Positions 3,333 to 58,092 are shown, numbered from the whole stretch's first letter. The stretch: DNA of 63,723 bases, filler included, from Reclinomonas americana ATCC 50394 (GCA_048213135.1; 5 parts of 3 records of this genome joined end to end with filler, not necessarily neighbours in it); one strand, 5' to 3'. Program-made: numbers and translations. The notes: generated by a model not told the origin, from the sequence alone.

Positions 3333-4665
3333 TCAGAGCAATCGCCTAAGAGAGAGAGAGACACAACGTGAGATAACGCAGACAACAACAACAAGTAGAG
3401 AGAGATGCTGATAGAGGGAACGCACTCGGTCTAGCCGCGCCAGCTCATCGCGCTTGGCAGCAATGGAGCTGTCGATATCGGAGGAGCCGAATGCGGTCGG
3501 CTCGTCGGCACGTTTGGGTGGCGGTGGTGGCGGTGATGGGCGTGCCTTCTGTGACATGAGTATGGCGAGTTCAGTTGCACGTACACACGTGCAGAGGAAG
3601 AGGAGAGCGCGTGCGACGAACCGGGGGAGGTGGTGGCGGTGGCGGCGATGCAGCGACGGAGGGAGGAGGTGGTGGCGATCTCGCCGACGCTGCAGTGCAC
3701 AATGAGTGGCTTGCACGGTGGCGTGTGACTGACATAAGAGAGACGCACACAGCATGGGTGGCGGTGGGGGACCAGTGGGGGCGGCCAGTGGCGGCGGCTG
3801 CGGAACACGCGGCTTCTCGCGCGGCTTTGGTGCCTCCAGTCGCTCTTGAATGCCTGGTCGCTCAGAGACCACTGCCGTCTCCACTCGCCCGTAGTCGCCG
3901 CCGCCCTTGACCTGTCACTGCGCAGTCAGCAGCAGCAGCAGCAGGAGCACGACTGCACCACGTGGACGCAACTCGCACATGATCCATCGACCGCACCGCA
4001 TCCTCGCGCTTTGCTCGCACCGAGGCAATCACATCGTGGTAGTCCTTCTTTGGCTTCTCCTCCACTGGAGCAGCAGCCGCAGCAGCAGCGCCTGTGGGAT
4101 CCTCGGCAGCCGCTTTCTGCAAGCAGAGAGAAGGATGTGAGCAAAAGAGAGAGTGAGTGGAGGGAACAGGAGCAACGAAACCTCGCGTTTGGCCGCCAGC
4201 TGCTTGGCTGTGTCGCAAGAGAGGGGAGCAGCAGATAAAGTGAGCGTGTGCTTTCTCAAGGGTTCATAGAGTCTTTCTCTCTCTCTCTGCTCTCTCTCTC
4301 TCTCTCATTCCCTGAGGATCCTCTCAGACCTTCTGCTTCTACTATACCTCAGCTCCCAGCCTCTCTCTCTCTCTCTGAACAATCAGCGGAACAAATCAAT
4401 CACTCAATCACACACACACACACACATTCTCTCACACACACTCACACACACACTCACCAATATAGCTCGAGGCCTGCTGCGAAGCCATTCCAATAGCAAC
4501 TCCTTTCGCTCTTTGACACACCAATCAGACACTGACTGACTCTCACACACAGACACACACAGAGAGACGCAACACTTGACCAATAGAGGGACGAGTGATG
4601 GCAAGAGTGGTGGCAGTCACAATAGCTCCGGCAATCGCAAAGTCACGTGAGTTGGGCGCGCTCAT
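3333..4665 (-). CDS. Hypothetical proline-rich protein (multi-exon; 3' end uncertain)
   Basis: Phase-consistent chain MSAPNSRDFAIAGAIV...GQV|AKGVAIG...YI|AKQLAAKRE|KAAAEDP...MDHVR|VKGGGDYGRVETAVV...PPPP. No recognisable domain. Confidence 0.5.
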
Positions 4666-4747
4666 GCACCGACTTAGGTCGCCAGTCAGTCGATCCGAGC
4701 TCTCCTCTCAATCACAACGCTCACTGACTTCTGTGTGAGACAAAGCG

Positions 4748-6126: not shown

Positions 6127-6289
6127 TCGAACAGAACCACACTCCACGCATCTCACTTTGATTGCACTCTCAGTCTCCACCACCACCACCACCACCACCA
6201 CCACCATCATCGTATACGGGATTGGCAGGTGCGTGTGCGCGAGCGCATCTGTGTGTGTGTTTGCGTTCGTCTGATTCGTGTCAGCTGCA

Positions 6290-9990: not shown

Positions 9991-10645
9991 GCTCCCGCTG
10001 ACGATGTGCTGACCATCGGGGGTGACGGCGACACACACCAACACTCCGGTGTGTCCCTCCAACCGGCGCACTTCCTCGCCGCTGGCCAGCGACCACACCC
10101 GCAAAGTCCGGTCATAGCTCGCACTCACAGCATGCTGACCGTCGACAGTGACCGCGACAGACGCCACCCAGTCCGTGTGGCCTTCCATTCGTCGCACCTC
10201 CTCTCCACTCGCCAGTGACCACAGTCGCACAGTCATGTCCACGCACCCGCTGACGATGTGCTGACTGTCGGGAGTGACGGCGAGAGACCACACTGTTCCA
10301 GAGTGTCCGTCCAACCGTCGCCCCACGGCACCACTCGCCAGGGGCCATGATCGCACGCTGCCATCATCCCCGCCACTCACAACGTGCTGGCTGTCGGGAG
10401 TGACGGCAACGCAGAACACTATCCCCGAGTGCCCTTTGAATTGTTGCACTTGGCGTCCGCTCGCCAGTGACCACACGCGCACCGTCTTGTCCTCACTGCC
10501 ACTCACAATATGCTGGCCATCGGGGGTGACGGCAACACAAAACACCCGCCTCAAGTGGCCTTTGAAGATCTGTGCGTGCGCATGGTGGTGAGGAACAGGA
10601 GAGTCAAGCGAGCGCGCGTACGCACGCACGTACTCTTGCGGTCAT
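9991..10645 (-). CDS. WD40-repeat family gene, 5' part
   Basis: 12-nt first exon MTAR (10634-10645), intron 10570-10633, then 42-aa repeats (GH..V..VAVTPDGQHIVSGS.D.TVRVWSLASGEEV) running into a gap. Confidence 0.85.
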
Positions 10646-11109
10646 GGTGTTCNNNNNNNNNNNNNNNNNNNNNNNNNNNNNNNNNNNNNNNNNNNNNNNN
10701 NNNNNNNNNNNNNNNNNNNNNNNNNNNNNNNNNNNNNNNNNNNNNNNNNNNNNNNNNNNNNNNNNNNNNNNNNNNNNNNNNNNNNNNNNNNNNNNNNNNN
10801 NNNNNNNNNNNNNNNNNNNNNNNNNNNNNNNNNNNNNNNNNNNNNNNNNNNNNNNNNNNNNNNNNNNNNNNNNNNNNNNNNNNNNNNNNNNNNNNNNNNN
10901 NNNNNNNNNNNNNNNNNNNNNNNNNNNNNNNNNNNNNNNNNNNNNNNNNNNNNNNNNNNNNNNNNNNNNNNNNNNNNNNNNNNNNNNNNNNNNNNNNNNN
11001 NNNNNNNNNNNNNNNNNNNNNNNNNNNNNNNNNNNNNNNNNNNNNNNNNNNNNNNNNNNNNNNNNNNNNNNNNNNNNNNNNNNNNNNNNNNNNNNNNNNN
11101 NNNNNNNNN

Positions 11110-11561
11110 TGGACACTACAGTGAGAGTGTGGTCGCTGGCGAGCGGAGAGGAGGTGCGACGGCTGGAGGGCCTCTCTGCAGTGGTGAACGCTGTCGCCGT
11201 CACTTTCGATGGTCAGCGCTTTGTGAATGGGAGCGGAGACGGCACGGTGTGTGTGCGGTCACTGGAGGATGGAGAGGAGTTGCGACGGTTGGTGGGACAC
11301 TCGGGAGTGGTGAACTCCGTCGCCGTCTCTCCTGACGGTCAGTGGGTTGTGAGTGGGAGTGACGACAAGACTGTGCGGGTGTGGCCCACGTCGCGCGGGC
11401 TTGCCGTGCAAGAGCTTGCAGCCGCTCGTTCGGCCGTGCAGGCCATCGACGAGCTGTTCGGCGAGGAGGCTGACGGCGACTGGGTTCTCGTCGATGTCGT
11501 GTTGCGGTGCTTTGTGTTGGAGGATGCAGAGGTGCTTGCGCGCCGTGCGCTTCCGTGGTGA
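11110..11561 (+). CDS. WD40-repeat family gene, 3' part with the conserved tail; probably the same gene as 9991-10645 on a flipped contig
   Basis: Last repeats, then RGLAVQELAAARSAVQAIDEL...DWVLVDVVLRCFVLEDAEVLARRALPW*. Confidence 0.85.
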
Positions 11562-26944: not shown

Positions 26945-29900
26945 CTACGCCATGCCTCTCCCACAAAAGGCTTCCAGCAGATCGGGGCTGAGGCCAATGG
27001 CCCCGTCGTACACCACACCGCTGACGTCGAGACTGTTGCCACCCACACTCCATCGCAAGCGCGGCATGTCGAGTACCGACAGCTCGGCCACAGCCTGCGA
27101 GTCGTCCGCTTGTTGCGCTCGCTGCACGTCCCACGCACGAAGCGAGCAATCTGCGCCGCAAAGCCATCATCGGCGACATGAGAGAGAGAGAGAGAGAGAG
27201 CACATCGGGCGGTGTGTCGGGACAGACCGTCAGCTGCGGTGAACAGCAGTCGATCGTCTTCCGAAAACAGCAAATCGTTGACCGTGGACGACACCTGGAG
27301 AAGGACGCGACTCCACAGGCGACCAACGCGCGCATTTGAGGTGCTCCACTGGCGCACGGTGTTGTCTTGCGAAGCGGAAAGGAGCCATCGCTGATCGTTG
27401 CTGAAGCGAAGCGACTGCATCGGGCACAACAAACACCAAACACAATTAAGCATCTTATAACAAAAGGATGCGAAAGAACACGCTGTGCAACTTTGATCGG
27501 CCGTGTGTGACCAAACAGCGACGCCAAGCACGTGCCATCCGCCACGCGCCACAAACGAACCGAAGCGTCCATACTGCAGCGCGTGTAAGAGCGCAATCAT
27601 CCAACTGCGCATAATACGTGAATGCTCACCTGCCCGACGCCAACAGCTGACCATTGCTCGGTGAAAACGCCAGCGACGTGATCCAATTGGCATGCCCACG
27701 AAGCTTGGACAGGCAACGCCCGGCGGCGACGTCCCACAACGCCACCAGTGTGTCGTCGCCACCGGTGGCCAACAGCGCACCCGCCGGAGCAAAACACACA
27801 CAGTTGACCACATCGTCGTGCGAGCCGGACAGCGAGCGTACGTCGCCGCTCTCGCGGTCCAGCACCAACACAATGCCGGAGAAATCCTCGCTTGCGGCCG
27901 ACGCCACGTATCTGCCATCGGCAGACACCGACACGGCTTGCACACCACTGCCGGTGCTGTGCGTCCACTCCTCTCGCACGCTGCCAGTCGTCGGATCGCG
28001 CACCGTAGCTGTCAGGCTACGCGCGCAGGCCACCACCAGCGAGGAGGTGCCACCAACCGTCATGGCCGCAATGTCGTCCACTGGCCCGTCGGACACGGTG
28101 AGCACATTGCGCGACTGGCCGTCAAAGGCGCCCCAGAAGCGCATCACTCCATCGTAGCCGGCGGAGACCAGTGTGTCGGAGTCGATGAGTACCATACATG
28201 TGACACGGTCGGTGTGACCGCCAGCGGCACGTGTCTCGGCCGTCACACTGGCCAACGGAGCAAGCACAGCGCCATTGGCACCAACAACACCGTCACCTGC
28301 CGACCGCAGCGACATGCCCTCCACATGCGCACCCCGGAAGGAGGCACGTCGCAACACAGCACCGGCCAGTGACACATTCCGCAAATCAGCGTCGTCCAGA
28401 ATGCACGACTCCATCACGGCCTGCGCGACACAGGTGAGGCGTGAATGGGAGAAAGGGGAAGAGCAAGGGGAAGAGGAAAGAGCAAGGGTAAAGAAGAATG
28501 AGCAATGCGGGCAAGAACAAGGCGGAATGTAAGGGGAAACGAAAAGAGAGACAGATAGAACGGGATGCCACTCACCTGCGTGAGACGGGCTCCGGGAATG
28601 CGCACGCCGCGCAAATTCATGTTGATGAACGAGAAGCGGCACAAGTTGAGGGCTGGATGCAGAAACGTGAACACCACAGAAGAATGACATGGAAAGGGGA
28701 GGAGACAGCAATATCAACACAGACCAGTGATTGCGTTGGCAGCAGCGGCGGCCAACTCTGCACGAGTGCGAGTTTCGAGTACCAGCGCCAAGAGGGCGGC
28801 TTGCACGCCGTCGCTCAACATGGCACGATCTGCAATGAGCTCCAGAATGTCGCTCTGTGACAAGAGAGAGACAGAATGAGTGTGGAAGCGACAGCAACGT
28901 GTGTGCGCGCGCGCATGTGACAATCACCTCACGATATCCGGTCAACACATGCATGTTGAGCAAGTGATGTGCAAGGTCGTGCATAGCGACCTGATCCAGC
29001 TCGGCGTCAGCCAACTGCGGAATGGAGCGCGGATTGATGGCGTCGCTGCGGACGCCGAGTGGATTCACGACAGGTGCACTGCCGAGGCCGATGGGGGCGG
29101 CCAGTAGTGTCTCCACAAAGTCGAACGCTGTGAAAAACTGCCACCACAGCGGATGCAGAAAGGCTGTGCCGGTCGGCAGCAGCAGCAGGGTGCGTCGGAA
29201 GGCGCCAGCTTTGGCCACAACCGAGGCGGTGGGTGGCGGAGTGGCGGCCACTTTGCGCGAGGCCAAGCGGCACTGCATGAAACAGTCGGCCACAGTGCGG
29301 ACCTCCTGTGCGTCAAGAACTGTATTGAGTGTGCGAGTGAGTCAGTGTTTCGCGAGCTTGCGCCAAGTACCGGCGCAAAGGAGGCAGCATCGGGCGACTG
29401 CAGCTGCTTCTCGAACCACCAGTGCGCCACATGATACAGCAAGCGATATCGTGTCATGCGGCCTGCGCGGGGTGTGAGCACCAACACAGAGAGAGGCATG
29501 TGGCGCATTGGAGACAAGCAACGCAACGTGACGAGTGCGACGAGGTGCGCGTGAAATCGGCAAACGCCGGCAGCGCCGTCGTCAGCATGTGCAAGAAGAG
29601 TGGCTGCCGAGGGACGTGAGCAAAACAAGCAGAACTTGACTGACAATCACCACGGACGCACAGTCTTGGTCAGGCGTCCCACGCCAGGAATGCTGGCCAC
29701 GTGCTGCGCCAAGAACTGGCGCGACTCGCCCGAGTACCCGCTGGTGTCTTGGTCCACGACTCTGCAGAATAGAGAGCGGAGTGAACAAAAGCGGCGAGGG
29801 CAACAGATCATCCACACACGCACGCACTTGGCGAAATACAGGCGCAGATCGTCGGGTCCCGGCGGTACCAACTCGCACTCCACTAATCGCTGCGACAGGA

Positions 29901-32073: not shown

Positions 32074-32633
32074 TGGCGGCGGCAGTGAAAAAGCCGATTN
32101 NNNNNNNNNNNNNNNNNNNNNNNNNNNNNNNNNNNNNNNNNNNNNNNNNNNNNNNNNNNNNNNNNNNNNNNNNNNNNNNNNNNNNNNNNNNNNNNNNNNN
32201 NNNNNNNNNNNNNNNNNNNNNNNNNNNNNNNNNNNNNNNNNNNNNNNNNNNNNNNNNNNNNNNNNNNNNNNNNNNNNNNNNNNNNNNNNNNNNNNNNNNN
32301 NNNNNNNNNNNNNNNNNNNNNNNNNNNNNNNNNNNNNNNNNNNNNNNNNNNNNNNNNNNNNNNNNNNNNNNNNNNNNNNNNNNNNNNNNNNNNNNNNNNN
32401 NNNNNNNNNNNNNNNNNNNNNNNNNNNNNNNNNNNNNNNNNNNNNNNNNNNNNNNNNNNNNNNNNNNNNNNNNNNNNNNNNNNNNNNNNNNNNNNNNNNN
32501 NNNNNNNNNNNNNNNNNNNNNNNNNNNNNNNNNNNNNNNNNNNNNNNNNNNNNNNNNNNNNNNNNNNNNNNNNNNNNNNNNNNNNNNNNNNNNNNNNNNN
32601 NNNNNNNNNNNNNNNNNNNAACCACCACCACAG

Positions 32634-34811
32634 GGCACCGTGTCCTTCGCCTCCGGCCTGATGGGCTGGGGCTTTGGTCTGAAGCAGTTTGCTCGCACCT
32701 ACTCGCGCAAGTTCGGCGTGGAGGAATCCAAGCTGGTCGAGCGCCTGTGGGGCGACAACTTCTTCGACGGCAAGGCCAAGACGTGGAAGAAGTCCAGCGA
32801 CGGCTCGGACGGCACCTCGCTCAAGCGCGCCTTCTGCCAGTTCGTGCTGGACCCGATCTACCAGCTCTTCGACGCTGTCATGAACGAGAAGACTGCCGTG
32901 ACGGAGAAGATGCTCACCTCGCTCAACATCCGCCTGACGGTGGAGGAGCGCGGCCAGCAGCCCAAGCGCCTGCTCAAGGCCATCATGCAGAAGTTCCTGC
33001 CGGCTGCCGACGCTCTGCTGGAGATGATTGTCGTCCACCTGCCGTCCCCGGCCACCGCGCAGCGCTACCGTGCCGAGCTGCTGTACAACGGCCCCAAGGA
33101 TGACCGCGTTGCGTCTCCCCTTATCCTCTCCTCCCCAGTTTTAAGATGACAAGATGCTGACTTTGCTTGCGCCTTCCACAGTACTGCCAGTCGATCCGCG
33201 ACTGCAACCCCGACGGCCCGCTGATCATGTACGTGTCCAAGATGGTGCCGACGTCCGACAAGGGCCGCTTCTACGCCTTCGGTCGTGTGTTCTCTGGCAA
33301 GATCCGCACTGGCCAGAAGTGCCGCATCATGGGCTCCAACTACGAGCCTGGCAAGAAGGTTTGTTGTGTTCTGCCCTTCTCTTCGCGTTTTCTTTCCCTC
33401 TGTCCCCCCTCTCCCCTTCTCCTCTCCCCTCCCCTTTCCCCATTCCTCATCCCTTCCCCTTCCCTCTCCACCCCAGGACGACCTGTACGTCAAGAACGTG
33501 CAGCGCACCGTGCTCATGATGGGCCGCTACACTGAGGCCGTGGAGGACGTGCCTTGCGGCAACGTCGTGGGTCTGGTCGGTGTCGATCAGTACCTGGTCA
33601 AGACCGGCACCCTCACCGACGAGGACTGCGTCGATGCCTGCCCGCTGGTGGACATGAAGTACTCCGTGTCGCCTGTCGTGCGTGTCGCCGTCGAGGCCAA
33701 GAACCCGGCCGATCTGCCCAAGCTGGTCGAGGGTCTGAAGCGTCTGGCCAAGTCCGACCCGCTGGTGCAGTGCACCATTGAGGAGAGCGGCGAGCACATT
33801 ATTGCCGGCGCCGGCGAGCTCCACCTCGAGATTTGCTTGAAGGATCTGCAGGACGACTTCACTGGCGTGCCGCTCCGCATCTCGGAGCCCGTCGTGTCGT
33901 TCCGCGAGACGGTGTCGGAGGAGGGCCAGGAGGACTGCCTCTCCAAGTCGCCGAACAAGCACAACCGTATCTACATGCGCGCGCAGCCGCTGACGGAGGA
34001 GCTGGCCCTCGACATTGAGGCCAAGAACCTCAACCCGCGTGATGACGCCAAGGTCCGCGCTCGCTTCCTGGCCGACAACTACGGCTGGGACGCTGGTGAT
34101 GCCCGCAAGATCTGGGCCTTGGCCCCGATGGCCTCGGCCCCAACCTCGTGATGGACGCCACCAAGGTGAATACTTTTCTATCGCAGTCTGCCTTTTTGCA
34201 ACCTTTTCCTCACCTCGACTTGCGCGCGCGCACAGGCCGTGCAATACCTCAATGAGGTCAAGGAGCACATCACCGCCGCTTTCCAGATCGCCTCCCGCGA
34301 GGGTGTGTTGGCCGACGAGCACATGCGTGGTGTGCGCTTCAACGTCATGGACGTGACGCTCCACCCCGATGCCGTGCATCGCGGTGCCGGTCAGGTCATG
34401 CCGCCGGCTAAGCGCGCCATGCAGGGCGCCGCCTACATGGCTGCCCCGCGCCTCATGGAGCCCATCTACCTGGTCGACATCCAGTGCCCCGAGCACGCCA
34501 TGGGTGGCATCTACGGTGTGATGAACCGCCGCCGTGGTCAGGTCATTGGCGAGGAGAACCGCCTCGGCACGCCGCTGTACCAAGTCAAGGCTCACTTGCC
34601 TGTGGCTGACTCGTTCGGCTTCACTGCCGACCTGCGCTCCAACACTGGTGGCCAGGCCTTCCCGCAGATGATGTTCGACCACTGGGCGATTGTCAATGGC
34701 GATCCCCTCGAGGAGGGCAGCAAGCCCAACGAGTTCGTCAAGGCAACACGCAAGCGCAAGGGCCTGGCGGAGAACATCCCGGGTCTGGACCGCTACCGCG
34801 ACAAGCTCTAA
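32634..34811 (+). CDS. EEF2: Translation elongation factor 2, 3' part (apparent 1-nt frameshift at about 34119)
   Basis: [71 protein letters not shown], diphthamide loop DAVHRGAGQ, ends YRDKL*. Confidence 0.97.
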
Positions 34812-37952: not shown

Positions 37953-38558
37953 GGTGATAACTGGTTGGTTAACAGGGGGGAGGTAGCACGGATAACGAGA
38001 GAGAAGGGTGAGGGAGCTTTGCGCAACACCACACCGAATATAACTAAGAGGCGATCCGTCGGTCGAGCCAACGTCCCAACTTCCTGCAACTTCTGCCGAT
38101 CAGGCGTATTGAGAGGCTCTATTGCCGTGTACAAGGTTCGCTCTCGACGAAACTGCCAGGAGGAGGGCCGCTCTCAGGCGTGCATGTGGTCTGCGTGCCG
38201 GAAATTCGAAAAGAATATTCTCTCGCGATCGGGAGAGAGAAAAGAGAAGAGAAGAGAAAGCGCAACACTCTCCCGAATGCTGTACATTGCCTTGGTCGTT
38301 TAACATGACTGTGCTGCTGTGAGTGGGTTGAAGAAGTCGTCGCCCTTTGCGATCACATGCTCGGCAAAGCATCTATGTGCCGCCCTCTCCGCCTACTGGA
38401 TGGTGCGCCACTCGTTGTTCCCATTGGTGTTCACACAGATTGGTCAGTGACAGTGCATGCCAGAGAGAGGAAGCGATGGAGACGAGGAGAAAGTGGAATT
38501 GACCGTCGGTTTTCGCCAACAGAAACCATGGACATCACACGCATGACTCTCCACGCAT

Positions 38559-40550
38559 TCAGTCGGCGTGCCACTTGAGGCGACCAAAGTTGCACTCGTC
38601 GAGCACCGGGCGCCAGAGTGCACTGTGGCGACGGATCGCCAACATGTCGTTTCCGCACCAATCGGCCGGATTACGATCTTGCCATGCAACGTGCATGCCG
38701 CACACTTCGTGCACATCCTGCCATCGTAATGGTCAGACACTGGGAAGAGAAAGGAAAACTGGGACTTGCAGACGAACCTGCCACCAGAGTCCGCTGACTG
38801 GAATGCACAAGCCCACGGCCACAATGAACACATCGAAATCGCGCTCGTCAAGCCACGCCACGAACTCGCGCAGTGTCGGCGACGGCATCGTGCCGACGGC
38901 GCGTGCCGCTCGGAAAGACTTGTCTTGCGTCATTTTGGTCAGGGTGGTGAAGTCTGCACAGACACGCCAGAAAGCACACGTTCAGTGACAACTGCTCGCG
39001 ACAGCAAACTGCGAGATGCGGGGCGCACCGTCGTTCCAGAAGAGACCGTACTCGAAGGAGAACAAGTCGACCTTGCGCTGTTGCAGCAGTCGTTCCATTC
39101 CCTTGATCACGTACGAGTCCCAGCCCTCCACATCGATCTGTGTGCGTGCATTGGTACAATACTGGTACCAAAACCTGTTCTTGTGCACAGCGCACCTTGA
39201 TGTAAAAAATTTTCCGCCCCTCTGTCAACACCGCCTTGGCCTCCGGGTCGTTCTCCATGAACCAGTCGAGGCGCATCGTGGGAATCGTGTCTACTGGCTC
39301 CTGACTCACGCCGAGCATCTCCACTTCACGCACAGTCGGCTGTCGCAGCCTATAGCACACAGCGCATTGTTGTGAGTGCTGTGCGCGATACGCCACCCGT
39401 GCGACATGTGCAACAAGAACAAACCCGTAGAGATTGCCAGCTTCCCTCCACTGCAAACACACAGGCATGTCAGAATCTGCGCATGCGTCTATCCACTCCC
39501 CCGAAGCGCACACGCAGTAATCACCTGGCTCATCGCGTACAATGGCTGCGCCTCCACATTCTGATCGCTCAGTCCCACACGGTGCGGCATAAGCGTGCCG
39601 GGCGGGAGCTCGGCGGCCGAAGACACCAGTCCATTAAATGCCGTCTCACCCGGTTCAAACGCGAACACCCGTGCGCCGTACTTTCCCAGTCGCTGGCCGA
39701 ACAGAACGGCATCGGAGTGACAGGCGATTTCACTCGCAAAGTCACCGGCACCTGCGCGCATGCCACGTGAGTGCGGCCAGCGAGAGAGTGGACGCATGCA
39801 CTTCTTGCGCGATGTGCAACAAACGCAACCAACATCCACCAGGATTGGCGGGTCGAAAGCCGCTCTCTCTTCGTCGCTCACATTGAGAGATTTGTCCTTT
39901 TGCACGCGGTGCCACAAGAGACCAAGCTTGGTGTGCAGCGTCTTCAACGGTCCACCAAACACACTTGCAGTGCGAGTGAAATTCAGGCACCAGTGGTGCA
40001 AATGGTCCAACAGCCAATCAGAGAGCGCATTCCGCCAGCGCATGACTCGTTGCTGCTGGCGATGCGCCTCCAGACCGGCACGAAGCTCTGCCGCGATGGT
40101 CGGAGGTGTTTGCTGCAATACTACAAGAGTGTGTGAGTGATCATGAGAGAGAGAGCGAGACGACACCGCGTGTCAGCAAAGCGGACGTGCCTTGCTCGGC
40201 TCCCGCCGACCAGTCTCCCACAGTGTGGCCCACTGGCGGCGGCAGCTCATGCGGCGCTCCCCTCACAGTACAGTCGGCAACGTGCTGCGCACCAGCACAA
40301 CAAGCGTCATTCGAGAAAAAACCATTGTCGAGTGGGAACAAAACTGCTCAGAGCGAACGCACATCCTCGATCGACTCTAGTAGAATGCGTTCGACGCGCT
40401 CCACAAACGCCTCCTCAGTGGTCGCCCGTTGCACGTCATGGTGCTTGGCGTAAAAGTCCTTGGCTGTCGACATGACACCTCGTCAATGGCAAAGTGCGGA
40501 AGGCAGAATTTCTCTCTCTCTCTCCCACCCTCCCTATCCCTCTCTCTTCT

Positions 40551-40606
<56 letters not shown>

Positions 40607-41616: not shown

Positions 41617-41653
<37 letters not shown>

Positions 41654-43599: not shown

Positions 43600-46500
43600 A
43601 TGTCCACCAAACTTGGTGAGTGGTGCCGTGCTGGCTTCAGCTTCATACTCTCCTTTGTTGTATGTCTGATAATTTCTCCGCCTCCCTCTTCGCAGTCACC
43701 TCTCGTCTCCTTGTGACGCTGTTGTGCGTCATCATCATGCTCGTCGGCGTCTCGCATGGTGAGTCGCACGACGTGTGTGGATGTACTCGCGTGTTGTGGG
43801 CGCTGTTGTTGAGAGTGTGTGTGTGTAAATGGCGGACGGAGCCACGCGCGCGCACCATCACGTCGCGCGCCCGATCTTAAACTGTTTTCTGTGTAACCAG
43901 GTGTGCCTCTGCCGGTCAGGCAAATCTCCACCGGCTTCAAGGGGACGTCCATTCCGCCGCCGGTGGGTTCTGGCGTCACGTTCTCGCAAGACGATCACTG
44001 GAGTGTCGCAGTGAACGGCCAGACCACCAAGGCCTTCGTTAGCAACCCTTCGCTGTGCTACTTTGACGGCTCGAGCACCATTTGCTGGGACGCTCCCTCC
44101 ACGGCCTCTGCGTGGGTGACTCCATGTGAGTAGCGATCGGATTCTGTGCTCTCTCTCGATCTCGCACTCTCTCTCCCTTCGGCTGTGTGTCTCTCTGTAA
44201 GTACCAGTCTTCCCGTCTGTCTTTGTATACGTCTCTCTGTGCTCTTCCTTCTCTTTGTCTTTCTCGATCTCTTCTTAACCATTCTCCCTCTCTTTCCCAT
44301 CGATATCCCTTCGCCTCTCTTCGCACAGCCAGCAGCAGCACTGCTGCGCTCGTGTGGAACGACAAGACGTTGCAGTTCACCACCAGCTTTGACATGACGG
44401 GCTACGATCCGAGCAAGGCAATGCTGCAGATTCGACTGGAGGGAGATTTTGCTCCCGCCGAGCCGACCACCGCCTTTGTGCAAGTGACGCCTGCCGGCAC
44501 CACCGACCTAATTACAGTGCCCTATCCCGCGTGGTCGCCCACCAACTCGTACTCGCTGTCCAACCATCCGTGGGTGACCGTGCCGGCGACCGGCTGGCTT
44601 CCCAAGGCCGGCAATGTGCTGTCGGTGAAAATCCAGAATGTCGCCGACGTCACCGGACTCCGAGTGGAGGCGCAGTGTGAGTGTGCAGCGTCATGACTGG
44701 CTGTGCACTCTTACTAACTTCCCAAACCGTGCATGCAGTGCTCTGCAAAACAAGCGCCTGCGCGGCGCCCTTCACGTGCTGCGTCGGTCTATGCCAGGAC
44801 CTCCTCCACGATGTCAACAACTGCGGCACGTGCGATAAAGTGTGCCCCGTTGCGTTGACTGTGATCACGAGACAAACTCTCTCCCATGACCATAATCTCA
44901 TTCATCTCTGCCGTACATTGCCCCTTCCTTCCCTTCTTCTTCTTCTTCTTCTTCATTTCCCCACAGAACCCTCAAGCATGCTGCCGAGGCGCATGTACAG
45001 ATCTGACTTCGAGTCTCAACAACTGCGGCGCGTGTGGCAAGATTTGCGGTCCGGCAGATGCCTGTTGCGCTGGTGTGTGCACCAGTGTGCTCAGCATGCA
45101 GACGGATCCCAAGAACTGCGGCAAATGCGGCAACGTGTGCCCCACTGGCCAGTCGTGCTGCGCTGGCAAGTGCGTCAACCTCGGCAACAATCCATTCAAC
45201 TGTGGCACGTGCGGCAAGTCGTGCGCCGCCGGTCAGGACTGCTGCAACGGTGTGTGTTACACCATCAGCAACTACGCCACCGACGCCAAGAACTGCGGCA
45301 AATGCGGCAACGTGTGCCCCACTGGCCAGTCGTGCTGCAACGGCGTCTGCACCAACCTCAGCAACAACGCCACCAACTGCGGCACCTGCGGCAAGTCGTG
45401 CGCCGCCGGCCAGGTCTGCTGCAACGGCTTGTGTGTCTTCCCCAGCGCCTTTACATTTGACAGCAAGAACTGCGGCTCGTGTGGCAATGTGTGCCCCACT
45501 GGCCAGTCATGCTGCTACGGCAAGTGTGTCTCCACGAGCAGCGATTCAAGCAACTGCGGCACCTGTGGCAAGACGTGCGCCACCGGTCAGTCGTGCTGCA
45601 ACGGCGTCTGCGTCAGCACCCAGAGCTTCGCCACGGACGCCAAGAATTGTGGCACGTGCGGACATGTGTGCCCGCTGATGGCACCCAATTGCTGCAGTGG
45701 ATCGTGTGTGGCACCGACCAATGATCCGCTGAAATGCGGTCCGTGCGCCAATGTGCAGTGTCTTCCCGGTCGCGCCTGCTGCAGCGGCGTCTGCACCAAT
45801 CTCAGCAACGACGCCAGCAACTGTGGTACTTGTGGAAAGCCGTGCACCGCCGGTCAGGACTGCTGCAACGGTGTGTGCTACGCCATCAGCAACTACGCCA
45901 CCGACGTCAAGAACTGCGGCTCGTGCGGCAACGTGTGCCCCACTGGCCAGCCGTGCTGCGCTGGCAAGTGCGCCAACCTCAGCAACAATCCATTCAACTG
46001 TGGCACATGTGGCAAGTCGTGCGCCGCCGGTCAGGACTGCTGCAACGGTGTGTGCTACGCCATCAGCAACTACGCCACCGACGCCAAGAACTGCGGCAAA
46101 TGCGGCAACGTGTGCCCCACTGGCCAGTCGTGCTGCGCTGGCAAGTGCGTCAGCCTCAGCAACAACGCCAGCAACTGCGGCACCTGTGGCAAGACGTGCG
46201 CCACCGGTCAAGTCTGCTGCAACGGATTGTGCGTCCTGCCCAGCAGTTTCACCAACGACAAGAACAATTGTGGCTCCTGCGGCTTTGTGTGCCCCGCCGC
46301 TGGCCAGTCATGCTGCAACAGCAAGTGCGTCATGTTGAGCAGCGATCCGAGCAACTGTGGCACCTGTGGCAAGACGTGCCCCACTGGCCAGTCGTGCTGC
46401 AACAGCGTCTGCGTCAATACCCAGAGCTTCGCCACGGACGCCAAGAATTGTGGAACGTGCGGACATGTGTGCCCGCTGACGGCACCCAATTGTTGCAACG

Positions 46501-46610
46501 GATCGTGTGTGGCACCGACCAATGATCCGCTGAAATGTGGTCCGTGCGCCAATGTGCAGTGCCTTCCGAATCTCAAGTGCTGCACGGGAGTGTGCAAGAC
46601 CGCCTGCTGA
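43600..46610 (+). CDS. Secreted protein with an N-terminal beta-rich domain and 19 STIG1-like Cys-rich repeats
   Basis: Spliced signal peptide MSTKL|VTSRLLVTLLCVIIMLVGVSH|G. The repeat unit is D..NCG.CG..C..GQ.CC.G.C, and 18 units lie in one exon (44967-46610). No TM or GPI-type tail. Confidence 0.85.
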
Positions 46611-50300: not shown

Positions 50301-52072
50301 CCACGTCAGCTGATTATTTTGGTAGTGGTGTGGCCACTGTGTCCACTCTAGCTGGGCCATCGGCAGTGGACAGCAGCCTGTCATTATCGTCGCCCATGGT
50401 CTGTTGTTCTTTGTTTTCTATTGTGGCCAGGCTCGCGACTTACCCGAATTGTGATTGCCAATCACAAAAAGGGCGTGGTCGTGGACTGGACCTCAGGTCG
50501 CATTGTCGTCTGTGATACGGGGTGCATTTCTGCGTGTATTCTGCCCCTTGCGCTGTTGCCGAGTCGGACTCATTCTCCTTTNNNNNNNNNNNNNNNNNNN
50601 NATCGACTCCGCCTGTCGTCGGTTCGCTGCTGTTGCTCATTCGATGCGCAGCAACCACAAGATTCGACGAATGAGTGTGAGTGGCCTGGTGTCGAGGTCA
50701 GCCCGGAGCCTTGGATGGATCCGTTTCATCAGCCATGTTTTCGAGGTATGCCGAGATTCCTCGAGGGCATTTCAGTTGTTACCACTCTTAAACCCGTGCG
50801 GCACGAGCAGTCCCACAACCGTTGCCGTGCACCAAGCCACCGGCGACATTTTTGTCGTGGAGGTTTGATGGCTCGATCTCTCACAGCGTGCATCATCATC
50901 ATCGTCTCATGAGATGTGCCTCCAGGACGGTAACGGGGATGTGAGGCGCATTAGCGGCGCCGTAGTAGATACCCTGTCGATGGATCTACATTTGTCTGCA
51001 CCTCGCGGATTGGCCATCACCGCAAGCCAGCTGATGTACGTGGCCGACAGCGGCCACCACACTATTCTGTACGTACTGTCCTGTCCGCACACACGCAATT
51101 TGTGGACATCTCGCCGTGGAACTAATTCGTTACGACGCTGCACTCCTCAGGGAAGTAGACATAGGTGGTGCTGTGCAGTCCGTGGCTGGCGCGTTTGGTT
51201 CAGCTGGTAGCGCAAATGGAACGGGCTCCAATGCACTTTTCAATACGCCAAGCGCAGTGGCACTGGCGAGTGCAGACACGCTACTGTACGTTGCAGACAC
51301 TGGTAACCACACTATTCGAAAAATCGAGCTGGCCTCCACCTCCGCCGTTGTTTCTACACTTGCTGGGTCCCCTGGCAGCGCCGGCTCTGTGGATGGGGCG
51401 GCGACCAGTGTGGCACGATTCAGCAGTCCGGCGGGTATCACCGTCGGTTATGATGGCGTGGTTTACGTTGCAGATGTTGCGTCGCCGTTCGAGCCATTTC
51501 CTGCAGTAGAGCCGAGAGACTCAGCCGAGTGCTGTCGCAGACAAATAATTCCACCATTCGGCAAATCGACGTCACCGGAGCGCAAGTCAGCACCTTGGCC
51601 GGCTTGGCTACTGTACCAGGCGCCGCTGATGGATATGCTGGGTCATCGCGACTCAATTTGCCGGTATGCATGATCAATGTCTTGCCTGAGGCCTTCCCGC
51701 AGAATTGCTAACCAGGGTGCTCACTCACAGAATGGCGTGGCCTGGATTCGAGGGGGCCTGTTCGTGGCTGGTGCTGCTCGTTGGTGTCGACGCTCTGCAT
51801 GCACTAGCGTTCATTCTCACCCTCTCCTCCGCCTTCGGGCAGATTCGGGCAATCACACCATCCGCCTTCTCGCATTCCCCTCCTGGCGACTAAGTGCCAT
51901 GCCTCCCAGCAGCTCTGTTCGACGCGCATCGCATCGCTTACCACGTCGCTGTTTCCATCTGCAACGTACTACTTCCGTGCCACCAACATTGTATCAGCAC
52001 GAGGCTTGATTGTTGCCTTTTCCACTCGCTCGCCGCTCCAGCCTGTCAGTTGCGCACAATGGCCACCCCCCC
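47369..52072 (+). CDS. Large surface protein, 5' part: signal peptide, NHL repeats and FN3-like segments
   Basis: MHTALLLVLVAACWLCTLFVTA signal peptide. Many NHL units, e.g. STLAGSPGSAGSVDG...ARFSSPAGITV...VYVAD|TNNSTIRQI and LYVADTGNHTIRKI. Confidence 0.85.
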
Positions 52073-52172
52073 NNNNNNNNNNNNNNNNNNNNNNNNNNNN
52101 NNNNNNNNNNNNNNNNTTAATTAATTAANNNNNNNNNNNNNNNNNNNNNNNNNNNNNNNNNNNNNNNNNNNN

Positions 52173-55100
52173 TGCCCGCGCTGAGCACCGCAGGTACGTC
52201 CGTGTTATGCATGCAGGTGTTATAGATGTGCCTGACGACGTGCATCGCGCACCGCTAGTTATTCCCTCCATCACACTCGACATCAATGATTTGCCGACTG
52301 CTGGCACTCTCACCATCACACCGCTGAGTGGCGTGGCCCGAATCACGGCCTTTGCTTTCACGATGACTGACTTTGTGGATAAGGATCAACCTCGTGCGTC
52401 GCCTGTTGTTCTCGTGCTCATCGGATGGAACCGTATCTCACCTGCTTTTGTGTGTACGTGCGCGCGCGTCCAGTGTCCTATCTCCCGTTCTACGTGCACC
52501 CGTCACTTGGCACCAAGGTCGGTCTCGAAAAGAACCGATGTGTCCCCAGAATGCCGCACTTCTTTTCACGCTGACCGCCCTTCTCCTTTCTCGTCCACAG
52601 GTCTTTATCACGGCCAGTACGATTTCTGTTATCCGGGGCGTTGTGTTCCCGCTGGCTGGTAGCACCTCCACCGGCAATCAACTGCAAGTCGGTGTCACGG
52701 TTCGCGATGTATGCGGCGCGTCTGTCGATGTCTACTCCACCATTGTAGTTCTCGAGTCGACCGCACCGTCCACAACCGCGAGCAATGGAGCATTTCTCCG
52801 CGGCAGCTTTGACCGAGCGCAGCAGCTTGACCTGACCGACTTTACCGACAGTGAGGTGGGGGATGCCATGGGCTCGCTGAGTGCCGGCGTATCGGCGTTG
52901 ACTGTGGGTGACCAGTCTGCGCTGCTCGATGGTGAGACACTCTGTTACTTGTGGAGCGTTATTTGATTCTCACACATAGGGCCCTTGCGACGATGCAGTT
53001 GCTTCTAATCGAGCAGCCGTTCGTGATGCCTCAATGTTGTTGTCTGCGACTGCTACGAAAATCGACTTGTCACTCTCTCCCGAAACCACCACCACCATGC
53101 TTCTTGTGGCTAGAGAGCTCGCGAGGTGCTGTTGTCTGCACCTTTTTAAGCGCGCTTTCTCCCGTTTACTCACTGGCGCATTCGCGTGTCAGCTCATTGC
53201 GTGATATGGGCAAGAGCGGTGACTCTGCGGCCGTTGCCACAACCGCGAGTTCCCTGATGCAAACAGCTGTGCACATGGCGACGATCGGCAGTTACCTTCC
53301 AGTATCCTCCGTGCAGGTGAGAGAAATGGGGAAAGTGAGAGGAAAAGGAGAAGGAGAGTGGGAGGAAGGGGAGAGAGAGGGAAGAAGAACGAAGAGAGGG
53401 CAAGGCGAGAGAGAGAGAGAGAAGAGAAGGAGAGAGGGAGTTAGAAGGAGAGGAGTAGACACACTTCTCTCTTGCGTGCACTCACCGATTGCTGGAATCT
53501 TGTTGGTGAGGGAGAGGGCGGGNNNNNNNNNNNNNNNNNNNNTTCCCGCGCTGAGCACCGCAGGTACGTCCGTGTCTTGCAGGGCTGTACCCGTGCTGTT
53601 TTAGATGTGCCTGACGACGTGCATCGCGCACCGCTAGTTATTCCCTCCATCACACTCGACATCAATGATTTGCCGACTGCCGGCACTCTCACCATCACAC
53701 CGCTGAGTGGCGTGGCCCGAATCACGGCCTTTGCTTTCACGATGACTGACTTTGTGGATAAGGATCAACCTCGTGCGTCGCCTGTTGTTCTCGTGCTCAT
53801 CGGATGGAACCGTATCTCACCTGCTTTTGTGTGTGCGTGCACGCGTGCAGTGTCCTACCTTCCGTTCTACGTGCACCCGTCACTTGGCACCAAGGTCGGT
53901 CTCGAAAAGTACCAATGTGTCCCCAGAATGCCGCACTTCTTTTCACGCTGACCGCCCTTCTCCTTTCTCGCCCACAGGTCTTTATCACGGCCAGTACGAT
54001 TTCTGTTATCCGGGGCGTTGTGTTCCCGCTAGCTGGTAGCACCTCCACCGGCAATCAACTGCAAGTCGGTGTCACGGTTCGCGATGTATGCGGCGCGTCT
54101 GTCGATGTCTACTCCACCATTGTAGTTCTCGAGTCGACCGCACCGTCCACAACCGCGAGCAATGGAGCATTTCTCCGCGGCAGCTTTGACCGAGCGCAGC
54201 AGCTTGACCTGACCGACTTTACCGACAGTGAGGTGGGGGATGCCATGGGCTCGCTGAGTGCCGGCGTGTCGGCATTGACTGTGGGTGACCAGTCTGCGCT
54301 GCTCGATGGTGAGACACTCTGTTACTTGTGGAGCGTTATTTGATTCTCACACATAGGGCTTTTTCGACGATGCAGTTGCTTCTAATCGAGCAGCCGTTCG
54401 TGACGCCTCCATGTTGTTGTCGGCGACCGCTGCGAAAATCGACTTGTCACTCTCTCCCGAAACCACCACCACCATGCTTTTTGTGGCTAGAGATTTGGCC
54501 AGGTGCTGTTGTCTGCACCTTTTTAAGCGCGTCTTCTCCCGTTCACTCACTGGCGCATTCGCGTGTTAGCTCATTGCGTGATATGGGCAAGAGCGGTGAC
54601 TCTGCGGCCGTTGCCACAACTGCGAGTTCCCTGATGCAAACAGCTGTGCACATGGCGACGATTGGCAGCTATCTACCAGTATCCTCCGTGCAGGTGAGAG
54701 AAATNNNNNNNNNNNNNNNNNNNNNNNNNNNNNNNNNNNNNNNNNNNNNNNNNNNNNNNNNNNNNNNNNNNNNNNNNNNNNNNNNNNNNNNNNNNNNNNN
54801 NNNNNNNNNNNNNNNNNNNNNNNNNNNNNNNNNNNNNNNNNNNNNNNNNNNNNNNNNNNNNNNNNNNNNNNNNNNNNNNNNNNNNNNNNNNNNNNNNNNN
54901 NNNNNNNNNNNNNNNNNNNNNNNNNNNNNNNNNNNNNNNNNNNNNNNNNNNNNNNNNNNNNNNNNNNNNNNNNNNNNNNNNNNNNNNNNNNNNNNNNNNN
55001 NNNNNNNNNNNNNNNNNNNNNNNNNNNNNNNNNNNNNNNNNNNNNNNNNNNNNNNNNNNNNNNNNNNNNNNNNNNNNNNNNNNNNNNNNNNNNNNNNNNN

Positions 55101-55400
55101 NNNNNNNNNNNNNNNNNNNNNNNNNNNNNNNNNNNNNNNNNNNNNNNNNNNNNNNNNNNNNNNNNNNNNNNNNNNNNNNNNNNNNNNNNNNNNNNNNNNG
55201 GGGAAAGTGAGAGGAAAAGGAGAAGGAGAGTGGGAGGAAGGGGAGAGAGAGGGAAGGAGAACGAAGAGAGGGCAAGGCGAGAGAGAGAGAGAGAGATAGA
55301 AGAGAAGGAGAGAGGGAGGGAGAAGGAGAGGAGTGGACACACTTCTCTCTTGCGTGTCACTCACCGATTGCTGGAATCTTGTTGGTGAGGGAGAGGGCGG
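52173..55400 (+). repeat. Near-identical direct duplication of an about 1.35-kb exon/intron block (52173-53522 vs 53543-55400)
   Basis: Both copies start ...cccgcgctgagcaccgcaggtacgtccgtg and stay collinear, with scattered substitutions and small indels. Confidence 0.9.
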
Positions 55401-58092
55401 NNNNNNNNNNNNNNNNNNNNNNNNNNNNNNNNNNNNNNNNNNNNNNNNNNNNNNNNNNNNNNNNNNNNNNNNNNNNNNNNNNNNNNNNNNNNNNNNNNNN
55501 NNNNNNNNNNNNNNNNNNNNNNNNNNNNNNNNNNNNNNNNNNNNNNNNNNNNNNNNNNNNNNNNNNNNNNNNNNNNNNNNNNNNNNNNNNNNNNNNNNNN
55601 NNNNNNNNNNNNNNNNNNNNNNNNNNNNNNNNNNNNNNNNNNNNNNNNNNNNNNNNNNNNNNNNNNNNNNNNNNNNNNNNNNNNNNNNNNNNNNNNNNNN
55701 NNNNNNNNNNNNNNNNNNNNNNNNNNNNNNNNNNNNNNNNNNNNNNNNNNNNNNNNNNNNNNNNNNNNNNNNNNNNNNNNNNNNNNNNNNNNNNNNNNNN
55801 NNNNNNNNNNNNNNNNNNNNNNNNNNNNNNNNNNNNNNNNNNNNNNNNNNNNNNNNNNNNNNNNNNNNNNNNNNNNNNNNNNNNNNNNNNNNNNNNNNNN
55901 NNNNNNNNNNNNNNNNNNNNNNNNNNNNNNNNNNNNNNNNNNNNNNNNNNNNNNNNNNNNNNNNNNNNNNNNNNNNNNNNNNNNNNNNNNNNNNNNNNNN
56001 NNNNNNNNNNNNNNNNNNNNNNNNNNNNNNNNNNNNNNNNNNNNNNNNNNNNNNNNNNNNNNNNNNNNNNNNNNNNNNNNNNNNNNNNNNNNNNNNNNNN
56101 NNNNNNNNNNNNNNNNNNNNNNNNNNNNNNNNNNNNNNNNNNNNNNNNNNNNNNNNNNNNNNNNNNNNNNNNNNNNNNNNNNNNNNNNNNNNNNNNNNNN
56201 CTATGCGCTCTCACTGATTGCTGCATTTTGGCGGCGAGGGAGAGAATGAGAGGATAAGGAGAAGGATGAATGAGAGGAGCAGATAAGCCTCTCACTTGTT
56301 TCTTGTTGCATCTCGGTGGCGAATCTCTCGGCGGAGAGAGCGGAGAATGAAGAGGGGACTCGAAGTGCACAAAGGGGGGCATGGTCGGGGAAGTCTTTAT
56401 GAAGGTTGTGAGCAGATACTTGTGCTCAATCCCTGGCTCACTGTGCAGCTGCTGGTGTCGACGGTGGATACGGTGTTTGGAGCCACGCGGGGCACAGTGC
56501 TGGACGGACAGATGGCGAGTAATGGTATCACGGCGCTGTCCACTGTCGGATTTCATGCTGTCAACACCAAGACCGCCGGCGATCCTGCTATTGCCATCAT
56601 TGGCACCAACATACAGCTGGTGTCCGCGTACCTTTCGCCGTCGGCAACGGCGCCCGGCATCCAGGTCTGTGCTGCCCGCCTGCTCACGTCACTCGGAAAC
56701 TACTTACAAAAAATATTCTTAATGTTGCGCACCCAGTTCTCCGACAGCTCCACGTTCACTGTGCCCCCGACGGATGATGTTGCCTCTTCCATGGTCACGC
56801 AGTACCAGTTCCCGTTGGGCCTGACTGAGCGCCTGCAAGGTGTCTATCCGATCATCACCTCAACGCTTATCGACAATGGTTGGTCACCTGATGTCGTGCC
56901 TGCCGTGGTTTGCTTTCTTATCGCTTTTTACATGGCTGCCGCAGATCTGCTGCCCTACGCGGACAGTCGCAACTCCACTACCGTGTTCCTGGGTCCTGTC
57001 CAGCGAGTGTTTCTGCAAACAGCAAACGGAGTACCCATCGCTCTGAATGCCACTGCGGGTGAAGCGTTCACATTCGAGATTGCTCGTCAAGATAGCGCGC
57101 TCCTTGCCGCCGTTGCGCCGCAGCTGGTACGTCCTATTTGTATGCCAACTTGCCTGCGAATGTGTCGTGCCTAATACCTGCTGGCGAAGCGAGATGTGTT
57201 GGAGTACATTGCTGGATGTGGAGTGCGTGGCTTGCACTTACCTGAAGCAGATGACGATGGCGACACGACGCTGGTGGCCCTGGACGACAGTCGTTGCGCT
57301 TTGCATTGCAATTATGTGTGTCAGCTGACGAATAGGCGCATGTGCTTACGTGTCTGCACAGATTGCAACCGGACCGTGTACCGCAGTGACAATCGTGCGT
57401 GCGAACGATGGCATTCGCGCAAGGCGAGGGTTGTTCACGGCGCTTTCTGTTGTTTGTTTGTTTCTACAGCGACTGCTGCCGATTTCGGCAAGCTGTGTGT
57501 GTTCTGGAATGAGACCAGGCAGCAGTGGGTATCGGACGGATGCAAAACGTTGCGCCGTCGCACGGCGCATTGTGCAGTTCCTTTGTGCTCTGTCCTGACG
57601 AATGCACACACGTGACAGATTTGTGCGAGTGACGCGCGGAACTCACGACGTGCAGTCGTTTGTGTGTCGTTGTAATCACATGACGGATTTTAGCGTGAAT
57701 TGTGCGTCCTTTGGGTGGCGACGCGTGAAGGTTATCGCGTGTTGATTCGCCTTGCTCTCTCTCTCTGTGCAGTGCACGATATCTTTAACATTCACTTTAC
57801 CTTTGTCTCGTTGCGTCTGTACTCGGCGGTGTTGTTGAGTCGCAAGTGAGCTAAAGTCGTGATTTTCAGTCCTGCCGACTTGCTGTCACTCTTCACGGGC
57901 CAGCTGCTGAGGAGCTCGACATTTTCGATTGTCATTGGTAAGCACTCGCCGACCTGCTGTCACCACGAGTCTGCTCACCACTCACCACCACCCGGCGCGC
58001 ACCAGTGATTCAAGTCATCTATCTCATCCAGCTGTACATTGGCTACAAGATGGACCAGGCGAGCGACAAGCAGCTGGTCCGATGTGTCACCA
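52173..58092 (+). CDS. REJ-like and GAIN/GPS region of a polycystin-1/adhesion-receptor-like protein; probably continues 47369-52072
   Basis: NDLPTAGTLTITPLSGVARITAFAFTMTDFVDKDQP|LSY is REJ-like. CVFWNETRQQWVSDGC...CRCNHMTDFSV is a GPS motif (57496-57700), followed by a hydrophobic segment before the scaffold end. Confidence 0.75.

Follow-up and report, generated by a model that had tools for sequence, protein, structure and literature searches.

A second class of GT-AG introns, with the donor GTTGCG(T), beside canonical introns in a gene-dense draft window

How far may the start of a spliceosomal intron depart from what U1 small nuclear RNA (snRNA) can read? Few rules of pre-mRNA splicing are more conserved than guanine at the fifth intron position (+5) and the U1 pairing to which it contributes. 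The question is raised here by a 63,723-base stretch of draft DNA (the window, meaning the whole stretch analysed), which is gene-dense, has short introns, contains 27 runs of N (9,436 N) and is about 58% G+C in its called bases. An earlier note had listed 18 introns in it whose donors (5′ splice sites) begin with GTTGCG, and had described them as a major, sharply fixed class. The answer given here is that GTTGCG, or better GTTGCGT, is a real, discrete and sharply fixed donor class that stands beside canonical donors in the same genes; the spliceosomal GT-AG introns of this organism include a true second class, marked by it. The fixed intron positions are G, T, T, G, C and G, then mostly T, and the exon side carries no signal.

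All of the words lie where they had been reported (10 of 10 as GTTGCG on the plus strand, 8 of 8 as CGCAAC on the minus strand). Removal of the intron restores the reading frame and the homologous protein at 15 of the 18 sites; the site at 3967 is frame-consistent only, and those at 4568 and 57810 are without support. All 16 modelled introns start with GT and end with AG, and seven of them have no alternative in-frame GT within 15 nucleotides (nt) of the junction. The sites are these (a slash marks a junction in the protein):

33108..33181, plus strand: EF2 intron, 74 nt, GTTGCGT, phase 0; a contig of run X1 (see below) joins 33107 to 33182, GT to AG, with no ambiguity.
17619..17690, plus strand: coiled-coil gene intron, 72 nt, GTTGCGC, phase 1; 348 open codons upstream, no other in-frame GT nearby.
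17796..17867, plus strand: coiled-coil gene intron, 72 nt, GTTGCGT; the preceding exon of 105 nt keeps phase 1; no other in-frame GT; branch-like CTCAC.
17979..18054, plus strand: coiled-coil gene intron, 76 nt, GTTGCGT, phase 1; preceding exon 111 nt; alternative in-frame GT at +12.
24929..24992, plus strand: leucine-rich repeat (LRR) gene intron, 64 nt, GTTGCGC; part of a seven-intron model; no other in-frame GT.
25278..25346, plus strand: LRR gene intron, 69 nt, GTTGCGT; same seven-intron model; the junction ...LRMLWIQ/GNPMS... extends a leucine-rich repeat.
44849..44966, plus strand: Stig1-like gene intron, 118 nt, GTTGCGT; ...NCGTCDKVCP/NPQACCRGAC... keeps the period of the 11 Pfam Stig1 repeats that follow.
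51476..51540, plus strand: NHL-repeat gene intron, 65 nt, GTTGCGT; ...VVYVAD/TNNSTIRQID... completes an NHL repeat; neighbouring open reading frames (ORFs) match Pfam NHL.
57549..57618, plus strand: GPS-motif gene intron, 70 nt, GTTGCGC, phase 2; Pfam GPS matches both flanking ORFs.
57810..57815, plus strand: claimed donor GTTGCGT, unsupported; upstream sequence pyrimidine-rich and short-framed, no acceptor or frame evidence.
3912..3972, minus strand: intron candidate, 61 nt, GTTGCGT (word at 3967); frame-consistent only, with 97 open codons upstream and 192 downstream.
4568..4573, minus strand: claimed donor GTTGCGT, unsupported; upstream of the likely start codon, repeat-rich, without coding constraint.
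20337..20419, minus strand: DUF4200 gene intron, 83 nt, GTTGCGT; junction gapless against the homologue P0275.
20578..20633, minus strand: DUF4200 gene intron, 56 nt, GTTGCGC; covered by the P0275 alignment; the next exon begins six residues before the conserved block ...PE.LL..F..LE..NLFL.Q.
20700..20775, minus strand: DUF4200 gene intron, 76 nt, GTTGCGG; borders a 66-nt exon in a linker variable among homologues.
21272..21526, minus strand: DUF4200 gene intron, 255 nt, CTT-rich, GTTGCGT; joins ...LLSIRKH/LARPDKERMSDF...; homologues align from there onward, and the region just before varies.
29463..29527, minus strand: NACHT-WD40 gene intron, 65 nt, GTTGCGT; alternative in-frame GT at +12.
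39752..39829, minus strand: FkbM-type methyltransferase gene intron, 78 nt, GTTGCGT, phase 1; junction ...PPILVDV/GAGDFASEIA....

The EF2 intron (33108-33181) is the one site of the 18 covered by transcript-like sequence, from which the segment is absent. X1 is the sole public run that matches part of the window (share 0.06), and its kind is guessed to be RNA; its contigs, compared with positions 20000-39999, cover EF2 and little else there. One X1 contig of 2,339 nt, about 95% identical to the window, tracks EF2 and skips seven GT..AG segments exactly: the GTTGCGT intron and six others, whose donors are GTTTGT (twice), GTGAAT, GTGAGT (twice) and GTGCGT. Its source is a relative or a paralogue, and it might in principle be a processed DNA copy; the exon junctions are fixed by it regardless. 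The resulting junction, ...PKDDR/YCQSIR..., gives a length that we take to equal that of EF2 in other eukaryotes.

For 14 introns beyond EF2 the support is independent of the hexamer: alignment to a homologue, domain motifs, or frames held across several introns. The spliced DUF4200 model aligns with P0275 (423 residues) in one high-scoring segment pair (query 38-323, 286 residues, E=7e-43) that covers four GTTGCG junctions; the linker at intron 20700..20775 varies among homologues, so that this intron rests on frame and not on residue-level pinning. The seven-intron LRR model is a single open frame with a terminal stop only and unbroken leucine-rich repeats, and combines the donors GTTGCG, GTGCGT, GTTGCG, GTCTGT, GTTACA, GTGTGT and GTGCGC. 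In the coiled-coil gene, manual reading keeps the frame open throughout the three-intron chain: reading through 17619..17690 meets a stop after 27 nt, and 17979..18054 lies between 110 open codons upstream and 72 downstream. No homologue of that gene was found: the ORF 16574-17644 has no match among solved structures, and the frame 16574-17617 none among longer proteins. The NACHT-WD40 chain (GTGCGT at 29604-29661, GTTGCGT at 29463-29527, GTACTT at 29306-29370; introns of 58-65 nt around exons of 76 and 92 nt) keeps its frame into a WD40 ORF supported by Pfam.

The conserved motifs by which the earlier note had pinned several junctions bear scrutiny: EF2 is confirmed by the X1 contig, and the LRR, FkbM and NHL junctions each restore a repeat or motif. 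The alternative in-frame GTs upstream of the NHL intron at 51476 would remove repeat residues. At the FkbM junction, VDVG/AGD restores a nucleotide-binding methyltransferase motif; the gene itself has a weak Pfam match only (Methyltransf_21, E=0.009), in a later exon. The GPS junction, ...WVSDGCK/TFVRV...VCRCNHMTDF, yields the complete motif, and read-through there meets a stop after 66 nt. Of the sites left outside the supported set, candidate 3912..3972 matches no Pfam family and has an alternative in-frame GT at -6, and the donor at 4568 probably lies in a 5′ untranslated region.

As a word, GTTGCG is inconspicuous. Both strands together hold 50 copies, against 44.8 expected from an order-2 Markov model or 52.3 from order 4, which ranks it 1,102nd of 4,096 hexamers, and GTTGCGT occurs 15 times against 12.5 +/- 3.4 expected; the canonical words are over-represented (GTGAGT 131 against 51 expected, GTGCGT 90 against 59). 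Since the hexamer occurs at chance frequency, the claim must rest on where its copies lie. Curated introns begin at 15 of the 50 copies, as against 17 of about 6,850 other GT sites, a comparison that leans on our own curation. The base at +7 played no part in the earlier selection: it is T in 13, C in four and G in one of the 18 claimed donors, and T in two, C in 15, A in nine and G in six of the other 32 copies (T, 13/18 against 2/32; Fisher p=1.9e-6). Put the other way round, the claimed donors take up 13 of the window's 15 GTTGCGT heptamers, leaving two, one at 3086-3092 (minus strand) and an unassigned one at 8567. The position that holds C in every GTTGCG donor admits both A and C in canonical ones (A:C 4:3 in canonical donors, 0:15 in the GTTGCG class, p=0.005).

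Comparison of the two classes rests on a curated set of 31 introns, 15 with GTTGCG and 16 others. They differ on the exon side. The earlier count of G at -1 in 3 of the 18 claimed donors was recovered on recounting; within the curated set, G precedes 3 of 15 GTTGCG introns and 13 of 16 others (p=0.001). Elsewhere they are alike: lengths and C+T-rich composition agree (13 of the 15 GTTGCG introns are 56-83 nt long), and both have CTCAC, CTGAC or CTCAT, mostly some 10-30 nt before a CAG acceptor. YT[CG]AY occurs in 13 of the 15 GTTGCG introns and in 13 of the 16 others, a count made with the 3′ ends of 57549 and 44849 slightly off. Because the CTCAC-like branch motif and CAG acceptor are those of the canonical introns, it is probable that one U2-type machinery reads the branch and the 3′ end of both classes.

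Some features of the introns deserve record in their own right. The branch-like consensus (T)GCTCAC occurs in both classes, for example in 37496-37573 and 20578-20633 (both minus strand); it has a pyrimidine before the branch A, in contrast to the purine usual among eukaryotes. The terminal CGCAG of many introns, in both classes, could pair with UGCG at +3 to +6, as it might by eye in about half of the GTTGCG introns; the same end is found with GTGAGT donors. The other donors are more varied than the ordinary +5G types for which they had been taken: GTGAAT, GTACTT, GTTACA and GTAAGC were found, together with a GC-AG intron in the DUF4200 gene (20969-21039, minus strand, donor GCGCGT) whose junction, ...DEIKR/ADAAARNK..., is gapless against five homologues. 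Further donors with T at +3 are GTTCCG at 30426-30494 and 30989-31111 (minus strand, NACHT-WD40 region, predicted only) and GTTACA at 25715-25782 (plus strand, LRR model). GTTCCGT keeps G at +6 and T at +7, so that the class may tolerate change at +4.

How is such a donor read? Pairing was computed with ViennaRNA duplexfold, bulges and loops allowed, against a standard U1 5′ end (assumed rather than the organism's own; the string is that printed in PMC9311317 and PMC4856993), with 1,500 random GT sites as control. The 16 other donors have a median of about -6.5 kcal/mol against -2.3 for random GT sites (p=9e-6); pairing so much better than random, they are well fitted by an ordinary U1. For 8 of the 15 GTTGCG donors the energy is +0.5 to +0.7 kcal/mol; the best value is -4.8, and the class pairs no better than random sites (one-sided p=0.998).

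One explanation nevertheless keeps a single ordinary U1, which would read GTTGCGT in a non-canonical register while proteins and a strong branch site and acceptor offset the weak helix. The register could be a one-base shift (+1G on C9, +3U on A7, +6G on C4, +7U on A3) or a small asymmetric loop at +3 to +5. Much in the word invites this: the earlier description as GTGCG with one extra T is apt, GTTGCGT being canonical GTGCGT plus T; every one of the 18 claimed donors has G at +6, and 13 of them have T at +7, as pairing to C4 and A3 needs; and under a shift +1G would stand in for -1G and so account for the lack of preference for G there. Registers of this kind are validated in human cells (PMC4856993 and PMC9311317), on a very different scale: together they account for 1.5% of 201,541 human donors, with 68 predicted to have a +2/+3 bulge (Tan et al. 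2016, PMC4856993). Against it stand the energies just given, with no stable duplex for more than half of the donors, and the base opposite U1 position 5, a mismatch that is yet invariably C. As GTGAGT and GTGCGT are both common in the window, a one-T shift should also yield GTTGAGT donors, which would pair better; none of the seven GTTGAGT words in the window is a claimed or curated donor. A bulged register would moreover still gain from -1G, yet the GTTGCG class lacks that preference. The routine bulged register on ordinary U1 that the earlier note had proposed is thus unlikely, and an ordinary U1 in some non-canonical register, taken more broadly, is doubtful as well, though second in likelihood among the explanations weighed here.

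The explanation favoured here, tentatively and at somewhat less than even odds, is that these donors have an RNA guide of their own, containing ACGCAAC and most simply a variant U1, while the U2-type back end serves both classes. GTTGCGT donors would be recognised by base pairing with this guide over +1 to +7; the likeliest guide would be a variant U1-type snRNA beside the ordinary U1 that serves the canonical class, and recognition of the 5′ end alone would differ between the classes. A dedicated guide is preferred because affinity for standard U1 is near zero, because the would-be mismatch is an invariant C, and because no exon-side signal compensates; an invariant G+C-rich 7-mer is also the expected trace of a perfectly complementary guide. 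A more specific form, correspondingly more doubtful, is a two-guide system within one U2-type spliceosome, in which ordinary U1 would serve donors like AG/GTGAGT and a putative U1-like or recruited U11-like snRNA with 5′ ACGCAAC would serve GTTGCGT.

Several observations weigh against the class, its extent or its proposed guide. The 31 curated introns, 15 of them GTTGCG, were chosen partly because of the claim; in EF2 (seven introns, by contig) and UBA5 (four, by homologues), mapped independently of it, GTTGCG opens 1 of 11. By gene the figure is 2 of 7 in LRR and 4 of the 5 modelled introns in DUF4200; a further GTGCGT donor is seen in the latter after ...ESLLG (about 20232-20237, minus strand), outside those five. 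GTTGCG probably opens somewhere from a tenth to a third of introns, and old and lineage-specific genes may differ. Of the description 'major, sharply fixed', then, the second half stands, on the +7T bias and the placement of the copies, while 'major' is shown for the window only. Nor is the heptamer sufficient alone for donor use: the copy at 3086-3092 (minus strand), considered as a nineteenth donor, was rejected, being an in-frame part of UBA5 exon 1 whose use as a donor would break the frame, and the actual donor of that exon is a GTGTGT about 60 nt beyond it. Transcript-type evidence covers one junction only, from a contig of a relative or paralogue in a run whose kind is guessed. No snRNA gene of any kind was found by an Rfam search of the window, where no family reaches threshold, and the guide RNA is purely inferred. 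The energy model, finally, leaves out pseudouridines and the U1-C and U1-70K proteins, and its U1 5′ end is assumed.

Three mechanical, annotation-free tests belong on the same side, as they gave no significant enrichment of GTTGCG; GTGAGT failed too, from which it follows that such tests lack power. In this G+C-rich DNA, chance open frames and branch-like motifs abound to such a degree that the tests could not measure the share of the class. A branch motif plus YAG 45-130 nt downstream is found for 22 of 48 GTTGCG sites against a base rate of 0.288 (p=0.009 uncorrected, not significant over 174 hexamers); the test for an open frame, a 3′ signal and a read-through stop is passed by 8 of about 45 GTTGCG sites against a base rate of 0.126, and by 12 of 105 GTGAGT sites. 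Codon-usage scores set only EF2 apart from background, and the automatic phase picker chose wrong frames at several introns of known frame. A donor-agnostic dynamic-programming gene finder with expectation-maximization on donor hexamers gave GTTGCG 5 of 91 introns, and 17 of 95 after expectation-maximization; it was rejected as evidence, because on a reversed-sequence decoy it called 70 'introns' at first and 145 later, with up to 8 for a single hexamer.

Could the minor spliceosome be at work instead? In this account a transformed U12-type system would read GTTGCGT, its 5′ signal and its U11 and U6atac having co-evolved away from RTATCCTT, as in Physarum. An extended, near-invariant 5′ signal and the want of a -1G preference are two hallmarks of minor introns; avoidance of -1G in minor-dependent introns is reported in PMC11347168, and Physarum offers a large-scale precedent (bioRxiv 10.1101/2020.10.12.336362). 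The donors themselves read GTTGCGY, unlike RTATCCTT; there is no branch site of the TTCCTTRAC type; branch motif, acceptor distance and composition match the canonical introns; and Rfam finds no minor snRNA in the window. A transformed minor spliceosome is accordingly improbable. As a separate observation, the U12-like word RTATCCTY occurs five times (25479, 43339, 47893, 53302, 54679) against 1.17 expected, and 1 of 100 shuffles reaches five; none of the five is at a GTTGCG donor site, and the one at 47893 comes immediately after a GTGCGT (47887) that is more likely to be the donor.

A slightly fainter chance attaches to the idea that GTTGCGT is a birth mark: that the introns are young, were spread by one insertion process such as an introner-like element, and inherited the heptamer without selection for it. 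GTTGCGT introns are less frequent in EF2 and UBA5, the two old housekeeping genes, than in repeat-protein genes typical of the lineage, and their lengths are uniform, both as this would have it. The intron cores, however, show no likeness beyond composition (mean pairwise local score 7.84, against 7.49 +/- 0.16 for shuffled and 8.77 for the other introns), flanking duplications are absent by eye (an unsystematic look), canonical introns are equal in length, and donor recognition would be left unexplained. Last, that hand-splicing simply picked a common GC-rich word near any frame change is very improbable: the hexamer is at chance frequency, open frames are common at 58% G+C, the decoy showed 70-145 false introns with one hexamer inflated to 8, and 12.6% of all GT sites pass the mechanical ORF test, but one intron is exact in a spliced contig, a homologue aligns across four, domain motifs are restored at five, 7 of 16 introns offer no other in-frame GT within 15 nt, and the +7T bias lay outside the selection.

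The genes of the window, and the state of the draft that carries them, can be set out briefly. The recognised genes are:

1148-3174, minus strand: UBA5 (ThiF) gene.
14.6-18.3 kb: long coiled-coil gene.
19.8-22.2 kb, minus strand: DUF4200 ciliary coiled-coil gene.
24.6-26.5 kb: LRR gene.
26.5-31.5 kb, minus strand: NACHT-WD40 gene.
Within the window: WD40-repeat genes, a LYR protein and NHL-repeat genes.
Within the window: EF2, FkbM-type methyltransferase, Stig1-like cysteine-repeat and GPS-motif genes.

EF2 is split: its middle and C-terminal part lies at 32632-34700 (plus strand), and its N-terminal part, inverted, at 36294-37977 (minus strand), 1.6 kb downstream and past a gap at 35314-36184. 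One X1 contig links 32632 to 36294 across the opposite strands, and the split probably reflects a contig misoriented in the scaffold and not biology. At 34120 one C is missing from the window relative to the transcript-like X1 contig, which shifts the EF2 frame; the draft therefore has indel errors able to mimic frame changes elsewhere, and a possible case lies between the ORFs 15882-16757 and 16574-17644.

Three further observations concern the repeat genes. A 581-codon exon at 44865-46607 (plus strand) encodes 11 Stig1-like cysteine-rich repeats (Pfam E=1.9e-92), an array of a kind unusual outside plants. Three WD40 genes, at 9991-10641 (minus), 11112-11558 (plus) and 59945-60991 (minus), share near-identical repeat peptides (TVRVWSLASG...), with one motif identical in the last two; their presence on both strands points to a recently expanded family beside the NACHT-WD40 gene. 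Two introns 1,379 bases apart, at 52405-52600 and 53784-53977 (plus strand), have identical ends (GTTGTTCTC ... CCACAG) and come only from the unreliable gene finder; they suggest that a segment, possibly a gene unit, was recently duplicated in tandem.

As to the organism, the best match of its EF2 in the protein collection is 82% identical, and the named protist matches near the top are all discobids (the jakobid Stygiella 78%, a trypanosomatid 76%, heteroloboseans 71-74%); a discobid affinity is a guess from this protein similarity. UBA5, about 70% identical to everything, is uninformative on lineage. A scan of metagenomes with an EF2 exon found 48 loci, mostly on transcript-length contigs, the best 68% identical, and no close relative. 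Andalucia godoyi, an intron-poor species (PMC7050145), is excluded as the source, and Diplonema papillatum, with its long introns (PMC10161547), does not fit.

What would follow from such a class? A sizeable share of introns with C at +5, G at +6 and one fixed heptamer implies a second guide RNA, routine use of non-canonical registers, or some other route of donor recognition, and any of these bears on how flexible the definition of the 5′ splice site is and on how new intron classes originate. A two-guide system, if true, would add to the major and minor systems a third means of marking where introns start, all other machinery being common. To our knowledge, the minor spliceosome and its expansion in Physarum are the only precedents. 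Gene finders trained on canonical donors would mis-model genes with GTTGCGT introns, which fits the absence of this EF2 from the protein collections searched. A search of full-text literature met no description of a GTTGCG donor class, logos in figures and bioRxiv or closed supplements lying beyond such a search; prior description in a genome paper is possible. GTTGCGT is, in sum, a spliceosomal donor class with a non-canonical consensus, apparently undescribed, and its novelty would rise given a dedicated guide RNA.

The nearest comparison is with the neighbours in the same genes. GTGCGT and GTGAGT donors are known from GC-rich protists, algae and fungi; those of the window resemble the GTTGCG introns in being GT-AG, short, and furnished with the same branch motif and acceptor, and differ in their -1G, their good pairing with U1 and their over-representation as words. 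U12-type introns, including those of Physarum polycephalum, likewise stand as a second class within the same genes, carry a long, nearly invariant 5′ signal and lack a preference for -1G (bioRxiv 10.1101/2020.10.12.336362). The GTTGCGT introns part from them in a 5′ motif unrelated to RTATCCTT, in having the canonical branch motif rather than TTCCTTRAC, and in having no minor snRNA within the window.

Human 5′ splice sites read by U1 in a shifted, bulged or asymmetric-loop register were reportedly described by Roca and Krainer in 2009 and by Roca and co-workers in 2012. Like GTTGCGT, these human donors keep GT and have the +5 G and +6 U one base further in, so that each looks like a canonical donor with one nucleotide added; they are scattered and heterogeneous, mostly retain pairing on the exon side, and have an alternative register with the better predicted pairing, whereas the class described here is one exact heptamer with no exon-side signal, an invariant C at the would-be mismatch and almost no duplex. 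Human vU1 genes are said to encode variant U1 snRNAs, with the idea that U1 paralogues of altered 5′ end could serve other donors; here the variant RNA is hypothetical, and we know of no organism in which one serves a large, sharply defined donor class. Introner elements, reportedly intron families derived from transposons, share with the GTTGCGT introns their number, short uniform size and fixed end sequence, but introner copies are alike along their length and the GTTGCGT introns are not. The non-conventional introns of euglenids, for their part, have borders other than GT-AG and ends joined by a stem, whereas the GTTGCGT introns have GT-AG borders.

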